From: an uncultured Veillonella sp.
GTDB lineage: Bacteria; Bacillota; Negativicutes; Veillonellales; Veillonellaceae
Assembly: GCF_937981445.1 (NCBI RefSeq)
Contig: NZ_CALJON010000008.1
Location: 124,442 to 188,441, forward strand
Direction of reading: 5' to 3'
Length of the DNA: 64,000 nt
The position numbers and the translations under genes are program-made. Each line of letters begins with the position of its first letter. The first letter of the stretch is position 1. Below the pieces are notes generated by a model. That model was not told the DNA's origin. It ran no database searches and worked only from the letters and a program-made list of their open reading frames with translations. This document shows, one piece after another, positions 10,405 to 55,197 of this stretch.

Positions 10405-10566
10405 CTGCCTATGCAGCACTCGATTATGACAGCCTCATAGGTTCCCTTGTGGCACATGGAAGTGACCGCTTAGTGCTGCTATCTCTCGATCCTGACACGA
10501 TTCACAGGCTCCCATTGCACAAGCCCCACAAGACTGCCATAATCCAGTCCTGCATTACGGCTAGCT
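10405..10566 (-). ncRNA. ffs: Signal recognition particle RNA (about 155-160 nt)
   Basis: Minus-strand GUCAGGAUCGAGAGAUAGCAGC (10475-10496) matches the SRP helix-8 consensus (E. coli GUCAGGUCCGGAAGGAAGCAGC), with compensatory stem changes and a GNRA loop. The 5' GCCGUAAUGCAGGACUGGAUUAUGGCAG pairs with the 3' CUGUCAUAAUCGAGUGCUGCAUAGGC. It has its own promoter and terminator and lies upstream of dnaX as in Bacillus. Confidence 0.85.
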
Positions 10567-26766: not shown

Positions 26767-26912
26767 ATATAAAATAGTAAAAAGAAAATTTTTATACCCG
26801 TTGCCAGACCTCATCCTCTATGTTACTATTATGTTACAGACAATATGTACTGTTCACATGTAACTGCGATGCGAAGCATTAAGTGTACTTTTTAGTGCAC
26901 CGTACTACATGG

Positions 26913-26959
26913 AGCCCCTCCTAGATTTAGGCTTAAGGCCTAATCTGGAGGGGCTTTTT
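26913..26959 (+). terminator. Intrinsic terminator
   Basis: AGCCCCTCC-25 nt loop-GGAGGGGCT followed by TTTTT. Confidence 0.75.
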
Positions 26960-26970
26960 GTATACTACTT

Positions 26971-31195: not shown

Positions 31196-31574
31196 ATAAA
31201 AAAAGCCCTCAGTCACTATTGTGACCAAGGGCGATAATCGCGGTTCCACCTTGATTCATCTAATGCACTTTTATTTAAGAGCATTAAATATCTCTAACTG
31301 TACAGGTCTTAAAGACTGTATACAGATTCGCTGTAACGGGCGACACCCGAAAAAAACTCCCCTACTACTCATCAGCGCATTATCAAGGGCGACTCCGTCA
31401 ACCTCCATAAGCTTTGCCTTCATAACTCCAAGATGCACTTCCATATATGTCCTATGACCCGCTCTCACCGTCCGGGCTCTCTGCACATATTCTCATATAT
31501 GTACTCTTCTCTTCATCGTCTGATTTCTATTCAAATCGTAAACCTACTATAACACTATGAATTAACCCTGTCAA
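31196..31574 (-). promoter_or_regulatory. T-box riboswitch leader, probably Cys-specific, with its promoter, upstream of cysK-cysE
   Basis: Minus strand: TTGACA-17-TATAGT; GAUGAAGAGAAGAGUA; AG bulge CAGAGAG; distal loop ACGGUGAGAG; specifier region GGAAGUGCAUC; T-box core AAUCAAGGUGGAACCGCG; terminator GCCCTTGGTCAC-AATA-GTGACTGAGGGC followed by TTTTTTT. Confidence 0.85.
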
Positions 31575-38116: not shown

Positions 38117-38510
38117 AAAAAAAACCTTCCAATCCAACTAATACAAATGTACTAGGGACGAAGGTTACTCCGCGGTGCCACCCCAATTGATTCAATACGA
38201 ATCCGGCTCACTACGTACGGCTCATCATAGAAAGTGATAGAACTGTAAAAGAATTACATACATAGCAAACGCTCTTATATATTGCTCTTCCTATCTGGCG
38301 ATACGCGCTCCTTTGTTAACGGTCAGAGACGACCGGTGGTACCTACTCAAATTCGGGCCACATCTCCCAGGGCCATTCCTTACAATGTCCAGCATCGGGC
38401 TTCCACCACTCCCAACTCGCTGTAGCTGACTACTTATAAGTACTCTTCCTGTTCGTAGATGATGTCTTTATGTTTTGCTTAATTATACACACAAGAAAAT
38501 ACTAAGTCAA
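38117..38510 (-). promoter_or_regulatory. T-box riboswitch leader (specifier probably UGG, Trp) with promoter, upstream of the ECF operon
   Basis: Minus strand: TTGACT-17-TATAAT; AGAGUA-CUUAUAA stem partner UUGUAAG-GAA-UGG-C; AG bulge AGCGAG; distal loop AGUGGUGGAAG; T-box core AAUUGGGGUGGCACCGCG; terminator AACCTTCG ... GGAAGGTT followed by TTTTTTTT. Confidence 0.85.
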
Positions 38511-42195: not shown

Positions 42196-42220
42196 TACAG
42201 TCCCATAGCCGCACATAACA

Positions 42221-42327
42221 AAAACCTCTAGACTCTATATGTTGTGAACGTCTCATATTAGACCTTATATCTAACCTGAGAACATCAGTTCAAACCAACT
42301 ATAGCGTCTAGAGGTTTTCTATTTTTT
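42221..42327. terminator. Long-range hairpin terminator between convergent panD and the zinc-ribbon cluster
   Basis: AAAACCTCTAGAC-72 nt-GTCTAGAGGTTTT followed by CTATTTTTT. Confidence 0.6.
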
Positions 42328-42379: not shown

Positions 42380-43039
42380 TTATTGGAAATAATGTTGCTT
42401 AGTCACAGGGTCATACGTAGGCACTGGACCATATTCGTTAGGGAATGGTTTTGTATTTAAACAACCCACAACAATGCTACCAACACCGCCGAATAGACTC
42501 GCTAAAAGGATCCACCAACCAGCATAGCCCGCATCATGCAAACGGCGTACAGATACACCTAAGCTTGGCAAAACAAGAGCAAGAATTACAAGACCAGATA
42601 AAATATCGGCCCCTTCGTCATCCCCAATAAGAGCACCTAATAGAGCGGCAATAAAGACGATAATAAAGGTAGCTAATGTGAAATACCAATACTCCTTACG
42701 ACTTGCACGGCCTGTAAAGCAAAAGTACTTCTTAGTTAAAATCATCATAAAATTATCAATAAATGGAGGTGCACTTTCCCAATTAGGTGGTAATTGTTGG
42801 TACCCACCTTGTTGGTACGCCCCTTGAGGTTGACCATAACCTTGTTGTGGCTGTTGGTAAGAACCTACTTGATTTACGGGAGCACCTACAGGACCATTTA
42901 CTTGACCTGCTGGGCGATTGCTCACAGGATTCGCTGGTGCTGAACCATTATTTTGTGCTGGCTGCGCTAAATGCTCACCGCAATTAGGACAAAAGGCTGC
43001 ACCATCATTAATTTGCTTTCCGCATTCTGGACAAAACAT
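42380..43039 (-). CDS. Zinc-ribbon / Q,P,G,Y-rich linker / DUF805-type membrane protein
   Basis: MFCPECGKQ..FCPNCG; linker QQPQQGYGQPQGAYQQGGYQQ; GRASRKEYWYF ... RRLHDAGYAGWW with 3-4 TM segments. The second ATG is preferred (AGGAGG 6 nt upstream). Confidence 0.8.
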   Translation of the reverse strand: MFCPECGKQINDGAAFCPNCGEHLAQPAQNNGSAPANPVSNRPAGQVNGPVGAPVNQVGSYQQPQQGYGQPQGAYQQGGYQQLPPNWESAPPFIDNFMMILTKKYFCFTGRASRKEYWYFTLATFIIVFIAALLGALIGDDEGADILSGLVILALVLPSLGVSVRRLHDAGYAGWWILLASLFGGVGSIVVGCLNTKPFPNEYGPVPTYDPVTKQHYFQ

Positions 43040-43102
43040 CATATGCCTCCTTATAAAATAAATATAATAAGTTCAAACTAGTATATCATATACATAGAGT
43101 AT

Positions 43103-43966
43103 TTAAAAATTTTGCCCATGTCTCTGACTATGTGGCACATAATATCTAAAATCGGGTAAAGGCCCAAATTCATTAGGCTGAGGATCACTCTCTAAGCACA
43201 TGAAGACTAGCAATACAAAACTTCCTATGCCTGTTAATCCTAGCAAAAGCCATAAGGTACTGCGCCCTGTATCATGTAAGCGCCTGGCCGTAACGGCCAA
43301 ATTCGGCAAGAAGAACACCATCGGTGCAATGTAAAGGCTAATTCCTAAAGTAAAAATAGCCGTTACTATAGTGATAACTAATGTAGCCAATTGAAAGTAC
43401 CAATATTCTTGCCTAGTAGCACGACCTTCAAAATTTACAAAATTATCTAAAAAGCACCATTTAAAATTCTCCACAATGCCAGGAGAACTCACCCATCCAG
43501 CGGGATATTTACTATAACCATAAGTTCCTTGAGAATTATAAGGCCCTTGAGAGTTATAAGTCCCATAGGCTCCATTAGTCTGACCTGCACTATACCCCGC
43601 GCCATACCCTGTGCCATTAGGAGCAGCAGGTACCTGCATACCATTAGTAACAGTAGGTACCTGCGTACTATTAGCAACAGTAGGTACTTGCGTACCATTA
43701 ATAGGGGGTAGCGAGCCATTTACTCCATTCGGTGGCGCTGCTGGATTCATTACATAGGGATGACGAATCGCTCCCCATTGCGAATGGCCTTGTGCCCCAC
43801 CTGGCGAATTAGGTGAATAGCCCCGTGATTGCGCCATGGGTTGACCTGCACCATTATGTCTGCCTTGGGGGCCTTGTATGGAGCGGTTCATATGAAGTTG
43901 CGAACCACAGTGTGTACAAAATGCCGATCCTTCATTTACGGCCTTACCACATTGGGGACAAAACAT
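43103..43966 (-). CDS. Zinc-ribbon / low-complexity linker / DUF805-type membrane protein
   Basis: MFCPQCGKA..FCTHCG; 27-nt DNA repeats encoding VPTV(A/T)N(S/G)(T/M)Q; GRATRQEYWYF ... RRLHDTGRS. Confidence 0.8.
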   Translation of the reverse strand: MFCPQCGKAVNEGSAFCTHCGSQLHMNRSIQGPQGRHNGAGQPMAQSRGYSPNSPGGAQGHSQWGAIRHPYVMNPAAPPNGVNGSLPPINGTQVPTVANSTQVPTVTNGMQVPAAPNGTGYGAGYSAGQTNGAYGTYNSQGPYNSQGTYGYSKYPAGWVSSPGIVENFKWCFLDNFVNFEGRATRQEYWYFQLATLVITIVTAIFTLGISLYIAPMVFFLPNLAVTARRLHDTGRSTLWLLLGLTGIGSFVLLVFMCLESDPQPNEFGPLPDFRYYVPHSQRHGQNF

Positions 43967-44035
43967 GGTATCACCTCTTTTCCATAATATCCTATCATAA
44001 ACTTTTTATCATTTAGCTTCATTATACACTATCTA

Positions 44036-44791
44036 TTAACCTGCATAGTATGTATAATCTGGCAAAAGTCCGTATTTATTAGGCCCCGGATTACTTGGCA
44101 AGAACATAAATACTAAAATAGCAATACTCAAAAGTGGCACAAAACTAATCAAGAGCCACCAACCAGAGCGCCCCGTATCATGTAAACGACGTACTGTAAC
44201 CCCTAAATAAGGCAATAAAAATGCCAAATTAAGTAGACCCGCCGCAGCATAGGAAATAATGAAATTATCAAAAATGAGACCAATTAATGTAATAATCAAC
44301 AAACTCACTACGCTATTAGCCAAGGCAAAGCGCCAATATTCACCGCGTGTAGCCCGTCCTGTAAAGGATGCATATTTCTTGGTCATGCACATTTTAAAAT
44401 TAGGAATCAGCGCCAAGCAACCTACCCAATTAGGTGGATATTGTCCATAGGCACCGGCCTGTGGACTCCCATTCATGCCCCCATTTATAGGTGCATTACC
44501 TTGCATTGGGGTTACTTGTGCTGGTCGATTTTGGCCAGGAGTAGGCATGGGTTGAACTGCCCCTGGTTGACCTAGTCCCATAGGAGCACCCGTGGGTTGC
44601 ATAGGACGGGGGCTATGAGCCTGATTTGCCATTGGCGTTGCTTGAGCCGGTCTAGGAGGCGCCGGTGGTACAACCCTACCTACTCCAGGGCCGGCATTAG
44701 ATGCCCCTGTAGTTTGTTTAAATTGATTGCCACAAGCAGGGCAAAACTTAGTGCCCTCAGCAACTTGTTTTCCACATTGATTACAAAACAT
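44036..44791 (-). CDS. Zinc-ribbon / Pro-rich linker / DUF805-type membrane protein
   Basis: The ORF track starts at a GTG (44800); the ATG at 44791 has GAGGAG 8 nt upstream. MFCNQCGKQ..FCPACG; GRATRGEYWRF ... RRLHDTGRSGWW. Confidence 0.8.
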   Translation of the reverse strand: MFCNQCGKQVAEGTKFCPACGNQFKQTTGASNAGPGVGRVVPPAPPRPAQATPMANQAHSPRPMQPTGAPMGLGQPGAVQPMPTPGQNRPAQVTPMQGNAPINGGMNGSPQAGAYGQYPPNWVGCLALIPNFKMCMTKKYASFTGRATRGEYWRFALANSVVSLLIITLIGLIFDNFIISYAAAGLLNLAFLLPYLGVTVRRLHDTGRSGWWLLISFVPLLSIAILVFMFLPSNPGPNKYGLLPDYTYYAG

Positions 44792-44807
44792 GTATATCAC
44801 TCCTCTA

Positions 44808-45980
44808 CTACCAGCTTAGATTATTCTTTAACTTCATCGTAAGCACATGACGCACCGCATCATCAAGGCGCTCTTTGGAGATCTCCCCATTGCGCACGGC
44901 TTTTAAAATCGCATTATATCCTTCAATAGCATGGTCATATTCCTGTCCAATGAGAACAATATCAGCTCCTGCTTGGATAGTTTTTACACTCATTTCGCCA
45001 AAGCTGTAATGATTAGCTACGGCGCCCATTTCCATGTCATCAGTAATAATAACACCCTTATAGCCTAACTGCTTGCGAAGTATATCCTGCATAATTATTT
45101 TAGATAAGCTAGCTGGTGCCTCACTATCAAGCCCCGTATAAGTAGCATGACTTACCATCACCATGTAGTCATTATTGTCTACAGATTTAATCATTTCTTC
45201 AAATGGTTTTAAATCCGTTGCCCACATATCTTCTGCTGTAACATCTAACACATTACCCTCTTTATGAAGATCTGTAACGGTACGTCCAATACCAGGAAAA
45301 TGTTTGAGCGAATAAATAAGCCCCGCTTCATGATAAGACTGCCCTACAGCTTTTACGAAAGGTATTACACTCTCTGCATCAGTACCATAGGAGCGTTTAT
45401 CGCCAAGGCCTATATCAGCCACCGGTGCAAAATTTATATTAAAACCTAACGCTTTTAATTCTTTGCCACTCGTACTCGCTAACTCAGCGGCCTTACTGAC
45501 CTCCCCTTGGCCAAGAATTTCTGCGGCTGGCACATTCGTGAGTTCCTCACTCATGCGTTCTACTAGGCCCCCTTCTTGGTCAACAGCTACAAAGAGCGGT
45601 ACTTTTTCACTTTGCCGTGCTGTTTTTTGCAAATCCTTGATGAGCTCAGACACTTGTGTCTTTGATTCCATATTGCGGTCAAATAAAATGACCCCACCCA
45701 TCTTGTATTCACTGAGCATATAGGCTACATCATCACTTACTTTAGTGCCTTGCATGCCAAATAAAATGAGCTGCCCCACTTTATCTGCATCACTCATAGA
45801 TTCCATTAAGGCATCTACTTTTTGCTCCGCTGTAAGCTCTTGTTTTTGCCAAATCTCTTCCTTAGGCGCTTCCGATGTGGCCTTGCCACAGCCTACTAAG
45901 CCCAACACTAAACCCGTTAATAAAGCAAGGCTTAGGACCTTGCGCACCGGTCCCTGCCAAAATTTAAATCTCTTCATCAA
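44808..45980 (-). CDS. Glycoside hydrolase family 3 lipoprotein (NagZ-like beta-N-acetylhexosaminidase)
   Basis: 390 aa. Lipobox LVGCGK. GH3 motifs VILFDRN, AVDQEGG and KHFPGIGRTVTDLH. Confidence 0.85.
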   Translation of the reverse strand: MMKRFKFWQGPVRKVLSLALLTGLVLGLVGCGKATSEAPKEEIWQKQELTAEQKVDALMESMSDADKVGQLILFGMQGTKVSDDVAYMLSEYKMGGVILFDRNMESKTQVSELIKDLQKTARQSEKVPLFVAVDQEGGLVERMSEELTNVPAAEILGQGEVSKAAELASTSGKELKALGFNINFAPVADIGLGDKRSYGTDAESVIPFVKAVGQSYHEAGLIYSLKHFPGIGRTVTDLHKEGNVLDVTAEDMWATDLKPFEEMIKSVDNNDYMVMVSHATYTGLDSEAPASLSKIIMQDILRKQLGYKGVIITDDMEMGAVANHYSFGEMSVKTIQAGADIVLIGQEYDHAIEGYNAILKAVRNGEISKERLDDAVRHVLTMKLKNNLSW

Positions 45981-45994
45981 TTAACTCCAACCTC

Positions 45995-47392
45995 CTATAG
46001 TTGTCTTGCTTCAATGCTATCAATAAGCCAACGGTTATTTACTTTTACCATCGTAGCTTGTCCTGTAAAGGATCGTTTTACTGTACCACTGCCTTCATAA
46101 TCTGTAGCATGAAGAACGAAGTTAATTACGATTTGATTATTATTTTGAGACACCACATTCATGGAGTCCACGACACTTTCCTTAGTCGTAGCAAAGCCGC
46201 TGGCCCAAGCATTTACATCGCCAGCTTGGTTTTTAAATTGATCTGTAAATTGATTATATGCTGCTGTATAATTACGAGCTGTAATATATTGATGATATTG
46301 ATTAAATGCGCGCTGTGCCTGTTCTGCATCCACCTTGAGAGGGTCTGGCTTAGGTGCTGGCGTAGCAGTTTGCACTGGCGTAGGCGTTGCTGTTTTCCCC
46401 TTTGGCTCCGTTTTTGATGTATCACGCTTATGTGAATCCGTATCGCGACTATCCTCATAGGTATATTCATCAAAAATACCATATTCGTCCCCAAAGCTAT
46501 TACTTGCACTCATGAAACTACTGAACATAAGCATCCATGACGAGCCCCATAATACAAAAACTAAAATGATGGCAACAATAATATGGACTTTGTCATTGCG
46601 CTCATATAGTTTACGTCCCTGTGGTCCCTGACCACCTGGTATACCGCCTTGTGGACCCCCTTGAGCAGGCATGCCTTGCTCTGGTAATGGCCCTTGACCT
46701 GGTTGGAAGCGCTGACCTCCTTGAGGACCCACCGGTTGCCCCTGTTGACCACGTTGAGGACCTACTGGTGGCTGTCCCCCTTGTACAGAGCTAGCACCAT
46801 TTGTATGCGCCGACTGAATAGGCGGTATTGGAGGTGTTGGAGGCACTGGTGGTACAGGAGGCATTGGAATCCCTGTAGAAGAATCCTTATCTCCTGCTGC
46901 CTGCACTGATGCCGACTTTTCAGCCGATGCTGTAACGGCCCCTGCTTTAGAATCTGAACCAGCCCCTGTGGTAGAAGCGGAACCAGCCCCTGCAGTAGAA
47001 GCGGAACCAGCCTCTGCAGTAGAAGCGGAACCAGCTTCTGATTTCATATTAGATGCTACAGATGATGCCCCGTCGACTGTGCTATCTGTCTTTACGTCTG
47101 ATACTGTAGCTACTCTGCCCTCTGCACTAGCCTGTGATGACAAGCCTGTATCGGCAGTTGAAGATGTGCCAACACACCCCTCTGGTGATGTAGTTGTACT
47201 AGCCGATGATGGAGTAGCGGTACTGACCGCTGATGCTGTAGTCGCACTAGCCGATGATGCTGTAGCTCCACTAGTTGATGATGCTGCATCTAAACTGGTA
47301 GCACCTGCTACGGCTTCATTGACTAAGTTACCTCCACATTGACTACAAAATTTCCCCTGCGGCTGTTCATGGCCACATGACTTACATTTCAT
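45995..47392 (-). CDS. Zinc-ribbon / S,T,A-rich and Pro-rich linker / single-TM protein with a C-terminal globular domain
   Basis: The ORF track starts at a GTG (47401); the ATG at 47392 has GGAAGGAG 8 nt upstream. MKCKSCGHE..FCSQCG; 24-nt repeats (EAGSASTA); PPVPPVPPTPPIPP; TM IIVAIILVFVLWGSSWMLMF; C-terminal domain of about 110 aa. Confidence 0.8.
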   Translation of the reverse strand: MKCKSCGHEQPQGKFCSQCGGNLVNEAVAGATSLDAASSTSGATASSASATTASAVSTATPSSASTTTSPEGCVGTSSTADTGLSSQASAEGRVATVSDVKTDSTVDGASSVASNMKSEAGSASTAEAGSASTAGAGSASTTGAGSDSKAGAVTASAEKSASVQAAGDKDSSTGIPMPPVPPVPPTPPIPPIQSAHTNGASSVQGGQPPVGPQRGQQGQPVGPQGGQRFQPGQGPLPEQGMPAQGGPQGGIPGGQGPQGRKLYERNDKVHIIVAIILVFVLWGSSWMLMFSSFMSASNSFGDEYGIFDEYTYEDSRDTDSHKRDTSKTEPKGKTATPTPVQTATPAPKPDPLKVDAEQAQRAFNQYHQYITARNYTAAYNQFTDQFKNQAGDVNAWASGFATTKESVVDSMNVVSQNNNQIVINFVLHATDYEGSGTVKRSFTGQATMVKVNNRWLIDSIEARQL

Positions 47393-47431
47393 ACCAAACA
47401 CTCCTTCCTAACACTGCTATGATGAAATGAT

Positions 47432-47499
47432 TATTTTATTTCCATTCCTATTTTATTTCCATTCCTATTTTATTTCTATTTTACTTCTATTTTACTTCC
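47432..47499. repeat. Tandem array of 17-nt x2 then 11-nt x3 (TATTTTATTTCCATTCC / TATTTTACTTC)
   Basis: Units start at 47432, 47449, 47466, 47477 and 47488. The stop codon and last 4 codons of the 47487-48458 gene lie inside the last units. Confidence 0.85.
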
Positions 47500-48458
47500 T
47501 TAACATAATATGTATAATCTGGCAAAGGTCCATATTGATTACTAAATCGCTGACTTTTCCTCAAACAAAGGAGCAAAAATATAAAGGACATAACATCAGC
47601 CACTATGAGTAGAGGCAATAAAAGTTGTCCCGCTTCATTAGGCCCTATCAAAAAGCTAATAACACGACTCGGTATTTCTAGTAAAATCCAAAAAGCACTC
47701 ATCCCCGAATCATGGAGTCGTCTAATGCCAGCACTAAGAACGGGAATCGTAAAGATAAAAATCATGCCATAATATACTATATCTAGTAAGGGATCTGATT
47801 TTAATAATAAAGCCCCCACTTCAACTAACACGGACAAAGTTAAAATGACTAAAATAAATCGAAAATACTCCGCTCGCGTCATCCGTCCTGAAATATCGTT
47901 AAATTTAGACGTCATAGACTCTTTAAACACCGACCAGATATCAAGTGAGCCTACCCATGGTCCCATTTGCCACTCATAGAGAGGATATCCATATGGTGGA
48001 CCCCCTGGAGGCATCATCCCATAAGGGGGATAGCCATTGGGTGGCGTCCCATATGGGGAAGCTCCACTAGGCGGCATTCCATTAGGAAAATACCCATTTG
48101 ACTGTGTCCCATATGGTGAGGCTCCATTAGGCGGCATTCCATAAGGGGAATAGCCATTAGGTGGTGTCCCATATGGCGAAGCTCCATTAGGTGGCGTTCC
48201 ATAAGGGGAATAGCCATTAGGTGGTGTCCCATATGGCGAAGCTCCATTAGGTGGCGTGCCATACGGCTGATGTCCATCTGGTGGCGCCCCATAGGGTACC
48301 TGCCCCGTCTGTTCAGATTCAGCACCAGTAAATGCTTCGTCACTCTTTGCCTGCGCGGTCGACCCTGCATCTTTATGTTTCTTTACCACGGGACGCCCAC
48401 AGCGAGGACAGAATTTACCATCCTGAGGAATTTCATGTCCACAATAAATACAAAACAT
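47487..48458 (-). CDS. Zinc-ribbon / (PPNGxSPYGT)n linker / DUF805-type membrane protein
   Basis: MFCIYCGHE..FCPRCG; about 9 decapeptide repeats; GRMTRAEYFRF ... RRLHDSGMSAFW. TAGGAGG RBS. Confidence 0.8.
   Translation of the reverse strand: MFCIYCGHEIPQDGKFCPRCGRPVVKKHKDAGSTAQAKSDEAFTGAESEQTGQVPYGAPPDGHQPYGTPPNGASPYGTPPNGYSPYGTPPNGASPYGTPPNGYSPYGMPPNGASPYGTQSNGYFPNGMPPSGASPYGTPPNGYPPYGMMPPGGPPYGYPLYEWQMGPWVGSLDIWSVFKESMTSKFNDISGRMTRAEYFRFILVILTLSVLVEVGALLLKSDPLLDIVYYGMIFIFTIPVLSAGIRRLHDSGMSAFWILLEIPSRVISFLIGPNEAGQLLLPLLIVADVMSFIFLLLCLRKSQRFSNQYGPLPDYTYYVKEVK
48010..48290. repeat. In-gene 60-nt tandem repeat, about 4.5 copies, two of them nearly identical
   Basis: The sequence rows 48121, 48181 and 48241 align column by column with a period of exactly 60 nt, encoding PPNGASPYGTPPNGYSPYGT. 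Confidence 0.9.
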
Positions 48459-48468
48459 TGTATTCCTC

Positions 48469-49041
48469 CTATTCTTCTATAAAAACCCCTAGTACTGCGA
48501 GGGCTATAATACAAATAATGATAAGAAATGCAATCCACCCTGAGTCATTGCGCCTATATATAGGGCGAAATGAATTAGACCCAGGCGCTTGGGTATTTTG
48601 CCAAGGCTGCCATGGCTGTCCTGATGGCTGCATTGGTTGCAACCCTTGTTGTCCTTGTTGAACTCTTGATGATTGTTCTGCTGACTGCGCAGAATAAGGG
48701 TTGTGATGCCTCTGATTCTCTACTGCAGGGTCTTCTGTTGAATTTTCTATATTTGAATGTTCTGTACTAGAATTCGCTCTATATAAGTTCTCTGTATTGG
48801 AGTTCTCTGCATTTGAATTCTCTGTATTAGAACTCTCTATATTTGAGCTTTCAGTATTGAAGTTTTCAGTATTGGAGTTTTCTATACGTAAATCGTCCGC
48901 CCCATCCGCTTCCATCCATTCATCATGAGTGGGTACTGATTCGCTGGTAGGACTAATTTCTGGTTCACCATGCAGTACTTGCCCGCAGCGATTACAAAAC
49001 CGCTCTCTTTCATCCTTACTTCCACAATTTGGACAATCCAT
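48469..49041 (-). CDS. Zinc-ribbon / (NSNTE)n linker / C-terminal single-TM protein
   Basis: The ORF track starts at 49056. The ATG at 49041 gives MDCPNCGSK..FCNRCG, parallel to the paralogs. 15-nt repeats encode N(S/T)(E/N)N(S/F)-type pentapeptides. C-terminal TM WIAFLIIICIIALAVLGVFI. Confidence 0.75.
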   Translation of the reverse strand: MDCPNCGSKDERERFCNRCGQVLHGEPEISPTSESVPTHDEWMEADGADDLRIENSNTENFNTESSNIESSNTENSNAENSNTENLYRANSSTEHSNIENSTEDPAVENQRHHNPYSAQSAEQSSRVQQGQQGLQPMQPSGQPWQPWQNTQAPGSNSFRPIYRRNDSGWIAFLIIICIIALAVLGVFIEE

Positions 49042-49254
49042 AATCTCCCCCCTCATCGATTCCTATATCTTTATAAAAAGCTTATACTGTATAAATACCA
49101 TATGGAGTAGTAAAACTCCTCTTAATCTGCTTATATTAGCAAAAATTAGTCACAATAATGCCAAATTTAGCTTCAATAAATGTTAAAATTTCATTTTATT
49201 TTTATACTTTCTATTATACCTAAATTGTTGATAAAAATCTTCAAAAAAATATAT

Positions 49255-49306
49255 AAAAGCTGTAACAGAATGAATCCTATGCCCTTCATTTTGTTACAGC
49301 TTTTTT
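49255..49306. terminator. Hairpin terminator between leuB and the zinc-ribbon cluster
   Basis: AAAAGCTGTAACA-24 nt-TGTTACAGCTTTTTT. Confidence 0.7.
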
Positions 49307-49370
49307 CATGCGTTTCTCTTATTTTTTATTTTTCTTTTTTACGGACTTAAGAGCAGAAAAATGGCTCCAT

Positions 49371-49530
49371 CACTTAAGCTATATACTTAAACCATACACT
49401 TAAACTATATACATAGACCACATACTCAGGCTATATACTTAGACCACATACTTAGGCTATACAATTAAGCTCTACACTTAAACTAAACTATAAACTTAGG
49501 CCATACAATTAGGCTCTACAATTAAGCCAT
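49371..49530. repeat. Degenerate 13-nt tandem array, about 12 copies (CTTAGGCTATACA-like)
   Basis: CTTAAACCATACA CTTAAACTATATACA TAGACCACATA CTCAGGCTATATA CTTAGACCACATA CTTAGGCTATACA ATTAAGCTCTACA and further copies. The last copy contains the leuB stop codon (49522). Confidence 0.8.
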
Positions 49531-54928: not shown

Positions 54929-55197
54929 AAAAGCCCCTGAATTCACATCGTGAATCCAGGGGCGTTATGACATAACACGGTACCACCCTAGTTGGTGCTC
55001 TATAGTTATAACGGAACTACCGTCATGGCTTACTTAGTTTCAGCCACAATGCTCACAGGGGAGTTTCGATTATACAAGCTCTATTGCCTCACACCAACCG
55101 GCAACTCTCTGAAAGCAACTTAGTATATCTTTAAACCTGCTCATTGCATCTTTCATTTGATGTGTGTTATTTTCTCACAGGAAAAGACAATTGTCAA
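54929..55197 (-). promoter_or_regulatory. T-box riboswitch leader (probably Leu, CUC) with candidate promoter, upstream of leuABCD
   Basis: Minus strand: TTGACA (55192-55197); AG bulge CAGAGAG; distal loop GGUUGGUGUGAGG; specifier region CGAAACUCCCC; T-box core AACUAGGGUGGUACCGUG; terminator GCCCCTGGATTCAC-GATG-TGAATTCAGGGGC followed by TTTT. Confidence 0.85.

Follow-up and report, generated by a model that had tools for sequence, protein, structure and literature searches.

The DNA analysed here is a stretch of 64,000 nucleotides from an uncultured Veillonella sp. (contig NZ_CALJON010000008.1, positions 124,442 to 188,441), and "the window" denotes this whole stretch. Our subject is a cluster of seven co-directional open reading frames (ORFs), p1 to p7, that spans positions 42380-49041 of the minus strand after refinement of its ends (Table 1). 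An earlier note, made from the sequence alone, had described these genes, with gaps of 10-85 nt, as what looks like a dedicated but uncharacterised envelope system in which six zinc-ribbon membrane proteins, four of them of the DUF805 type, surround a GH3 lipoprotein. All seven ORFs were confirmed, and the six intergenic gaps were refined to 10-94 nt. The best named relatives are Veillonella caviae and Veillonella sp.

Table 1. Genes, tandem repeats and transcription signals of the cluster (window positions; TM, transmembrane helix; TRF, Tandem Repeats Finder)
Feature	Position	Strand	Description
p1	42380-43039	-	219 aa; zinc ribbon CPECx10CPNC, 66-aa Q/P/G-rich linker, DUF805 with 3 TM
p2	43103-43966	-	287 aa; zinc ribbon, 137-aa G/P/Q/N/Y linker with 27-nt repeat, DUF805
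p3	44036-44791	-	251 aa; zinc ribbon, 101-aa P/G/A/Q linker, DUF805
p4 (GH3)	44808-45977	-	389 aa; single-domain NagZ-type GH3, signal peptide and lipobox LVGC
p5	45995-47392	-	465 aa; four-Cys head CKSCx9CSQC, 240-aa linker, one TM (271-289), predicted periplasmic spacer after TM, then predicted C-terminal NTF2-like domain (~residues 340-465)
p6	47487-48458	-	323 aa; zinc ribbon, 147-aa P/G/Y linker (YGTPPNG units), divergent DUF805 with insertion
p7	48469-49041	-	190 aa; four-Cys head CPNCx9CNRC, 139-aa acidic N/S/E linker, C-terminal TM 170-188
27-nt in-frame tandem repeat	43614-43700		p2 linker, TRF
24-nt in-frame tandem repeat	46938-47035 (4.1 copies) and 47189-47286		p5 linker, TRF
60-nt (30/120-nt) in-frame tandem repeat	48015 to 48263-48293		p6 linker, TRF
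15-nt in-frame tandem repeat	48738-48882		p7 linker, TRF
Terminator of upstream leu operon	49242-49304	-	hairpin and U-run, fold -22 kcal/mol
Hairpin with long perfect stem	42220-42319		between p1 and convergent panD, fold -44 kcal/mol

All six proteins other than p4 start with a four-cysteine motif, CxxC-x9/10-CxxC, with the x10 spacing in p1, p2, p3, and p6 and the x9 spacing in p5 and p7, where it occupies residues 3-19 and is kept in orthologues. Among the window ORFs of at least 100 aa, this N-terminal motif is confined to these six, and since all of them fall within one cluster of the 64-kb window, the clustering is not due to chance. Four of the six zinc ribbons described earlier are also recognised by the Pfam model Zn_Ribbon_1 (PF13240, gathering score 25 bits), namely those of p1 (37.0 bits), p2 (31.7), p3 (28.5), and p6 (27.6). 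The p7 ribbon scores below the cut-off (17.7 bits for Zn_Ribbon_1, 22.9 bits for Zn_ribbon_3), and p5 has no Pfam zinc-ribbon match at E ≤ 0.01. Judged from their cysteines, the cluster ribbons presumably bind zinc. The DUF805 module (PF05656, gathering score 25.7 bits) was found in p1 (89.8 bits, E 2e-25), p2 (81.0 bits), p3 (99.9 bits, E 1.5e-28), and p6 (56.3 bits, E 5e-15), while p5 and p7 have no Pfam match to it. The proposed architecture of zinc ribbon, variable linker, and DUF805 in four proteins is borne out by Pfam, by motif alignment, and by an AlphaFold2 (AF2) model of p3. This fusion is widespread and already catalogued; of the top 120 DUF805 relatives, about one in four has PF13240 as well. 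Every module of the cluster belongs to a catalogued family; for the C-terminal domain of p5 described below, no Pfam model reaches threshold. Six of the seven proteins have no family in NCBIfam; the matches to its TcaA and SCO2400 models cover the ribbon only and lie far below the cut-off.

We then examined the DUF805 proteins in an alignment of 96 sequences that includes all four paralogues. Invariant residues (p3 numbering) are G145, R146, and R149, which form a GRxxR motif before the first transmembrane helix (TM1), R201, R202, H204, and D205, which form an RRxHD motif after TM2, and likewise N238 of the C-terminal tail. The AF2 model of p3 built from this alignment reaches a predicted local distance difference test score (pLDDT) of ~90 or more in ribbon and DUF805 and ~50 in residues 30-120, and the linker is accordingly modelled as a predicted disordered segment. 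Hydrophobic segments and the AF2 model both give a DUF805 module of a short pre-helix and three TM helices. From the concentration of basic residues before TM1 and behind TM2, together with a TM1-TM2 loop that is tiny or acidic, an N-in topology is predicted, which would put ribbon, linker, and the invariant charged DUF805 site all on the cytoplasmic side. Only a loop of 3-7 residues and the conserved tail of ~20 residues are predicted to be exposed to the periplasm. Since the conserved DUF805 parts are predicted to face the cytoplasm, a direct action of these proteins on the cell wall is unlikely. A sequence search of solved structures with p3 gave no match, and a Foldseek search of the PDB with the confident DUF805 model gave nothing with E below 5; the p3 ribbon resembles RanBP2-type zinc fingers in Foldseek, below significance.

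In agreement with the earlier note, our literature search found no published function for DUF805. Of the DUF805 genes, E. coli yhaH-yhaI is induced by CpxR (PMC2731931), and in Salmonella yhaH is repressed by the small RNA (sRNA) SdsR (PMC5137417). The cluster proteins p1, p2, p3, and p6 share with the DUF805 (YhaH/YhaI) family the GRxxR and RRxHD motifs, three TM helices, and a C-terminal PGxNxYGPxP tail. The E. coli members are bare proteins of ~120 aa, whereas those of the cluster carry an N-terminal ribbon and a predicted disordered linker of 66-147 aa, stand as four paralogues together, and are linked to GH3. Among experimentally studied systems, the cluster comes closest to the llmg_0524-0525-0526 operon of L. 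lactis, which encodes two membrane proteins whose N-terminal CX2CX10CX2C motif binds zinc, and of which Llmg_0524 affects lysozyme resistance (PMC4628341). As in our cluster, several membrane proteins with this N-terminal motif are encoded together, and p1, p2, p3, and p6 have the same x10 spacing. In contrast, no GH3, DUF805, or NTF2-like domain is reported for the L. lactis operon, the host is monoderm, and the likeness is one of motifs. By description, DUF805 can also be likened to RDD (PF06271), a small multi-TM module with no known role that is often fused to a ribbon and is reported to have a conserved, cytoplasm-facing intramembrane binding site (PMC12419801); a site of this orientation would be common to both, but their motifs differ.

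The p4 protein matches Glyco_hydro_3 (PF00933) with an E-value of 3.4e-73 over profile positions 4-315 of 316, and its best relatives in the PDB are the GH3 beta-N-acetylglucosaminidases 6k5j, YbbD (NagZ of B. subtilis), and LpqI (M. tuberculosis). Its KHFPGIGRTVTDLH lines up with KHFPGHGDTxxDSH of 6k5j, 4zm6, and YbbD, the Asp-His motif KH(F/I)PGxGxxxxDxH, and its nucleophile motif ITDDMEM lines up with VTDCLEM/VTDALNM of the same structures. By this alignment, the catalytic motifs of p4 are intact. A hydrophobic segment at residues 14-32 ends in the lipobox LVGC ([LVI][ASTVI][GAS]C), which is kept in orthologues; since the host is a Veillonella-like diderm Firmicute, the predicted lipoprotein should be periplasmic. 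The description of p4 as a NagZ-like GH3 lipoprotein therefore holds. The NCBIfam equivalog model for NagZ (NF003740) gives 199.7 bits, just under its cut-off of 207, and we therefore call p4 NagZ-like rather than a certified equivalog. It resembles YbbD and LpqI in being an extracytoplasmic, lipid-anchored GH3 protein with KHFPGxGxxxxDxH and an Asp nucleophile. It differs from YbbD in having one domain instead of two, reads D-L-H where the aligned GH3 structures read D-S-H, and has zinc-ribbon membrane proteins rather than amiE/murQ-type recycling genes beside it. A holin-like role for the 3-TM DUF805 proteins next to a wall hydrolase was considered and rejected, as the GH3 protein brings a signal peptide and lipobox of its own and DUF805 genes commonly stand alone in other genomes.

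The cluster proteins had been described as ending in TM helices. This does not apply to p5, in which the single TM is followed by ~175 extracytoplasmic residues, the last 130 of which are nearly invariant among orthologues; p5 and p4 are the only cluster proteins for which real periplasmic domains are predicted. A comparison of p5 with solved structures by sequence gave a chance match only. In an AF2 model of its C-terminal part, three helices (H97-117, H121-129, and H137-144) are combined with four long strands in a curved sheet, and the top 50 Foldseek matches of this domain are all NTF2-like (E from 1e-4), among them the NTF2 domain of RsgI9 and the CaMKII hub (E 1e-4 to 1e-3). The target-normalised template modelling score is 0.6-0.65 for hub domains and 0.25-0.28 for the two-domain RsgI9 chain. 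The modelled arrangement matches that of RsgI9 (7sjy), the CaMKII hub, and the SnoaL/DUF4440 clan, and we predict an NTF2-like fold with moderate confidence, given the shallow alignment. An exhaustive HMMER search (E up to 0.001) found at least 470 representative proteins with a p5-type domain at 50% clustering, and among the 150 representatives listed the domain is nearly always C-terminal. It is a separate, unannotated sequence family. One protein, P0160, contains DUF805, a p5-type NTF2-like domain, and SH3_3 in a single polypeptide and thus provides independent evidence that a joint action of the first two modules is possible. The juxtamembrane motif (I/L)YxRND of p5 recurs in p7, which stops two residues past its TM. 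From its sequence, p7 appears to be a tail-anchored, wholly cytoplasmic paralogue of p5 that lacks the periplasmic part.

A signalling interpretation was also considered, in which p5, and perhaps the DUF805 proteins, would sense wall fragments or the state of the envelope outside the membrane and relay this via the tethered ribbon to a target in the cytoplasm, in the manner of TcaA-like sensors or of anti-sigma factors of the RsgI type. In structure, the p5 domain is matched best by the NTF2 sensor domain of the anti-sigma factor RsgI9, p5 is a predicted bitopic protein with a cytoplasmic head, there is a weak N-terminal likeness to TcaA, and in E. coli the DUF805 genes are part of the regulon of the Cpx envelope-stress response. 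But in the loci examined, neither the cluster nor its immediate neighbours included a sigma factor or transcription regulator, and the Pfam scan revealed neither an RsgI_N nor another anti-sigma domain. S. aureus TcaA agrees with p5 in outline (N-terminal four-Cys motif, TM, extracellular domain, and a link to the envelope), but its NCBIfam model (NF053815) reaches only 16.2 bits against a cut-off of 550, on the p1 ribbon, with no match to p5, and the extracytoplasmic domain of p5 is an unrelated, NTF2-like one. Furthermore, the zinc module of the L. lactis proteins was judged to be structural rather than a sensor. We therefore regard a signalling function as improbable.

The linkers between the conserved ends differ in their repeats. 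Units of 27, 24, 60, and 15 nt, as noted earlier, were confirmed by TRF, and all are multiples of three nucleotides. The further claim that the linkers differ completely in composition could not be upheld: those of the four DUF805 proteins are all uncharged in character and rich in the same residues, with 49-72% Q/P/G/N/Y (background 22%) and 2-16% charged residues, including the orthologues from three other species. The p5 linkers contain 31-45% S/T/A and almost no Tyr, that of the window p5 being rich in S/T/A and then in P/Q/G, and the p7 linkers carry a net charge of -10 to -18 (-17 in the window). Between orthologues, linker identity is 12-67% compared to 48-94% in the flanking domains, in line with the postulated fast-evolving spacer, and linker length ranges from 32 to 165 aa in p6 and from 49 to 240 aa in p5. 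On these comparisons, the linkers drift fast in sequence and length, while their composition is kept within each gene family.

Variation in repeat number was also observed between strains. A p5 allele found on 10 contigs (P0312) differs by a single substitution and by an in-frame deletion of exactly two of the 24-nt units (16 aa/48 nt), with the BLAST breakpoint at 46986/46987; the copy number is thus strain-variable. Repeat-driven phase variation as an on/off switch was rejected, because the units are multiples of three nucleotides and the observed variant is an in-frame 48-nt deletion. In the conspecific strains with this allele, only the last 163 nt of p6 are left, at 99.9% DNA identity. 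In four such loci (L094-L097), p6 is replaced upstream of p5 by genes for an rve integrase, a DDE_5 transposase, RtcB, and a DUF4268 protein, which is a mobile-element-associated rearrangement within flanks of 99.9% identity.

The tandem arrangement of the DUF805 genes had been attributed to amplification, but this is not a recent event. In the DUF805 part, the paralogues are 26-46% identical to each other, whereas each is 71-94% identical to its own orthologues in the caviae-like clade (81-84% for p1) and still 48-78% identical to those of the more distant L004 species. This bears on a role in phage-host conflict, in which DUF805 proteins would be inner-membrane factors used by phages and a variable array of paralogues would provide decoys or escape variants. 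E. coli YhaH is required for infection by two phages, PhiWec188 and PhiWec190, as shown with complementation (PMC12548472); PHROG 12855, annotated as a membrane-protein moron, matches zinc-ribbon-DUF805 proteins at E 1e-19; a few Shiga toxin (Stx) prophage records carry DUF805; and tandem arrays with repeat polymorphism do exist. That some DUF805 proteins have a part in phage entry or exclusion is hinted at by the prophage records, PHROG, and YhaH. For the cluster itself, however, variation falls on the linker, which is predicted to be cytoplasmic, while the loop and tail exposed to the periplasm belong to the best-conserved parts, and the paralogues are ancient with stable one-to-one orthologues instead of the expected fast turnover. 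Only 9 phage records match, and weakly so, PADLOC reported a single chance-level match of DpdF to p7 (E 0.0016, 15 bits), and the window's copy bears no mobile-element signature. We consider this explanation very improbable for the cluster. DUF805-like membrane proteins are encoded in the Stx-type Shigella prophages KF766125.2 and KJ603229.1 (~16.3 kb).

To follow the neighbourhood across genomes, a survey anchored on GH3 was performed, in which 79 loci from species-representative genomes were scanned with local hidden Markov models. The order leu operon, p7, p6, p5, GH3, and then three to five zinc-ribbon-DUF805 genes is the same in three other species of the clade. In all 79 loci, an NTF2 gene directly upstream of GH3 and a nearby zinc-ribbon-DUF805 gene are either both present or both missing. 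Both are present in six loci, which come from a caviae-like genome (L076), the V. ratti clade (L008-L010), a Veillonellaceae metagenome-assembled genome (L072), and a Selenomonas (L074), and an additional ratti-type contig (L087) has the same arrangement. Gene order differs among these four lineages; in Selenomonas there is a 4-nt overlap between the NTF2 and GH3 genes. In a neighbour-joining tree of GH3, which agrees with the species tree, the parvula and caviae/ratti groups are sisters, and the RUG114 and Selenomonas loci, both of the clustered type, branch outside the two. Because the tree follows the species tree and the outgroups are clustered, the simplest history is that the neighbourhood is apparently ancestral and was later dispersed or lost in some lineages. 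Co-conservation of the cluster with GH3 in related genomes, as expected by the earlier note, is supported by this survey, and the cluster proved better conserved than could be seen from one genome alone. The note's view of a dedicated envelope system is supported in part: the linkage is apparently ancestral, but the tie to GH3 is not obligatory, because solitary GH3 loci, DUF805 arrays lacking GH3, and truncated p6 genes exist. The tightest tie to GH3 is moreover not formed by a DUF805 protein but by p5, whose periplasmic NTF2-like domain was overlooked.

Our preferred interpretation, which we hold tentatively and with somewhat less than even confidence, is that of an old envelope-homeostasis operon restricted to Negativicutes, with p5 and GH3 as its core and cytoplasm-facing zinc-ribbon tethers as accessory parts. 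In the core pair, p5 would be a bitopic protein consisting of a cytoplasmic zinc ribbon, a long disordered tether, one TM, and a periplasmic NTF2-like domain, and the lipid-anchored p4 would act in the periplasm as a NagZ-type enzyme that removes terminal GlcNAc from peptidoglycan fragments. At the outer face of the inner membrane, the NTF2-like domain might bind or position either the glycosidase itself or the muropeptides on which it acts, and the tethered ribbon might link this site to some cytoplasmic partner. The four anciently diverged zinc-ribbon-DUF805 proteins with their intrinsically disordered regions would, together with p7, add further tethered ribbon heads at the cytoplasmic face. 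Because GRxxR and RRxHD are predicted to lie at the cytoplasmic membrane interface, DUF805 would serve as a cytoplasm-facing membrane anchor that binds a ligand or partner, and not as a wall-acting enzyme. The linkers would be entropic spacers, for which selection keeps the physical class and tolerates expansion and contraction of the repeats.

Several observations weigh against this interpretation. GH3 occurs without either partner in ~60 loci of the V. parvula/dispar/atypica/rogosae group, in two Selenomonadaceae, and in three more distant Firmicute loci, while DUF805 tandem arrays of 3-8 genes occur without GH3. p5-type NTF2 domains and other zinc-ribbon-DUF805 genes are also found in unrelated contexts, together with ankyrin proteins, dynamin-like GTPases, or vWA/PP2C/TerY_C genes. 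At this position p6 is dispensable, because it is truncated in conspecific strains of 99.9% DNA identity. So little of DUF805 is predicted to reach the periplasm that a physical contact with GH3 is not obvious. Confidence in the p5 model is modest, with a mean pLDDT of 56 and values of 70-82 in the domain strands, and was built from a six-sequence alignment. The AT-rich gaps contain promoter-like hexamers (at chance frequency), so that several transcripts are possible, and support for the reading at this locus is wholly computational.

Much of this would be expected if the genes were simply neighbours by descent, that is, if an unrelated NTF2-GH3 pair lay beside a tandem-duplicating DUF805 family and the ribbons were a very common N-terminal module of Firmicute membrane proteins. 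The DUF805 arrays of three and eight genes lacking GH3, the solitary GH3 of the V. parvula group, and the loss of p6 in conspecific strains all fit this explanation, as does the occurrence of zinc ribbon plus DUF805 in unrelated organisms and contexts and of PF13240-type ribbons at the head of many different membrane proteins. It accounts less well for the joint presence or absence of NTF2 and DUF805 genes in 79/79 GH3 loci, with presence in four divergent lineages of rearranged gene order, for the long retention implied by the GH3 tree, for the fusion of DUF805 with a p5-type domain in P0160, and for the tight gaps that lack an internal terminator. We consider it less probable than the envelope-homeostasis reading, to which it is the main rival.

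A bolder reading would be a previously unrecognised trans-envelope module of diderm Firmicutes, in which the uncharged, prion-like Q/P/G/N/Y tethers, stretched in the cytoplasm between ribbon and membrane anchor, assemble into a brush or condensate at the membrane. The conserved cytoplasm-facing Arg/His/Asp site of DUF805 would then bind a ligand, either lipid-linked or a nucleotide, and the NTF2-like domain of p5 would couple this layer to NagZ-type trimming in the periplasm. We give this reading little credence; if true, it would provide the first function for DUF805 and for the zinc ribbons at the N-terminus of membrane proteins in bacteria. Of the modules in such proteins that still lack an explanation, DUF805 and the short N-terminal ribbon rank with the commonest, and YhaH and YhaI are still "y-genes". 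The locus offers an unusually rich natural experiment, with four ancient paralogues plus bitopic and tail-anchored relatives that have long been linked to a wall-trimming enzyme, and with natural losses: the V. parvula group no longer has the linkage, and conspecific strains lack one functional paralogue through a natural knock-out. The p5-GH3 partnership, the cytoplasm-facing DUF805 site, and composition-selected tethers are hypotheses that can be tested in a genus with genetics. Should there be no functional tie, the cluster would still be a tidy case of tandem paralogues with repeat-driven linker drift. New in this analysis are the p5-type NTF2-like family with its tight pairing to GH3, the joint presence or absence of these gene families (GH3, NTF2, and DUF805) at GH3 loci across Negativicutes, the prediction that the conserved DUF805 site faces the cytoplasm, and linkers that are conserved in composition and polymorphic in repeats. 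No paper linking NagZ with NTF2 was found in our literature search.

With respect to transcription, the cluster is flanked by the convergent panB-panC-panD genes on one side and by leuB-leuD-leuC upstream on its own strand. The leu terminator stands between leuB and the cluster and is followed by an AT-rich promoter region, and the long hairpin between p1 and panD is likely a bidirectional terminator that ends the cluster. Every cluster gene is preceded by a GGAGG-type Shine-Dalgarno sequence. None of the six internal gaps contains a hairpin with a U-run, and the gaps fold weakly. This reading relies on folding of the gaps and not on a consensus scan for promoters and terminators, whose counts were not above those of shuffled sequence. 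Tight gaps, the lack of an internal terminator, and the flanking terminators fit a single operon, which is probable but unproven. An AT-rich 17-nt tandem repeat (2.9 copies) lies over promoter-like hexamers in the p6-p5 gap (47432-47480), a region that may be an internal promoter for p5 and GH3. The breakpoint of the p6 rearrangement in the conspecific strains, at 47649 inside p6, is near this repeat.

Some further loci with DUF805 or NTF2 genes showed features of their own. In a metagenomic contig (L091:10001-15527), eight DUF805 genes follow each other, some with long N-terminal extensions and with no GH3 nearby, and three lie in a row in L090; tandem amplification seems to be a general habit of the DUF805 family. 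Beside the NTF2-GH3 pair of L074:1986-10450 and L072:135-4517, extra genes encode a 1110-aa protein with a weak match to actin/Hsp70-like ATPases, a trypsin-like lipoprotein, and several proteins with C-terminal or RanBP2-type zinc ribbons; two proteins of 317 aa and 108 aa from these loci are similar at their C-terminal ends, by eye only. In L089:290-11121, the gene for P0160 lies downstream of three genes for dynamin-like GTPases, one with 17 Sel1 repeats, and another protein, P0235, fuses Dynamin_N, TPR/Sel1, and a p5-type NTF2-like domain. P0128 (zinc ribbon, DUF4864, and p5-type NTF2) is encoded next to vWA, PP2C-with-zinc-ribbon, TerY_C, and SH3_3 genes (L098:1871-7096), a setting that resembles a TerY-phosphorylation-triad-like context. 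The dynamin/Sel1 and vWA/PP2C/TerY_C contexts were rejected as extensions of the system, as no GH3 occurs there, and the large proteins beside p5-type or DUF805 genes in L074 and L089 proved not to be homologous to each other.

A non-coding tandem array with a 13/26-nt period was observed at 49367-49511, right after the leuB stop codon and before the leu terminator. It consists of ~8 units resembling TAAGTRTRKRGYYTAAGT (8 matches against 0.03 expected by chance), and the unit was found neither elsewhere in the window nor in any of the 98 fetched loci. Rfam gave no match at gathering scores within 42-50 kb. Outside the cluster, gathering-level matches were obtained for T-box leaders on the minus strand at 54955-55153, 38151-38465, and 31224-31525, for the DUF3800-I sRNA at 26829-26966 (plus strand), and for the small signal recognition particle (SRP) RNA at 10432-10531 (minus strand).

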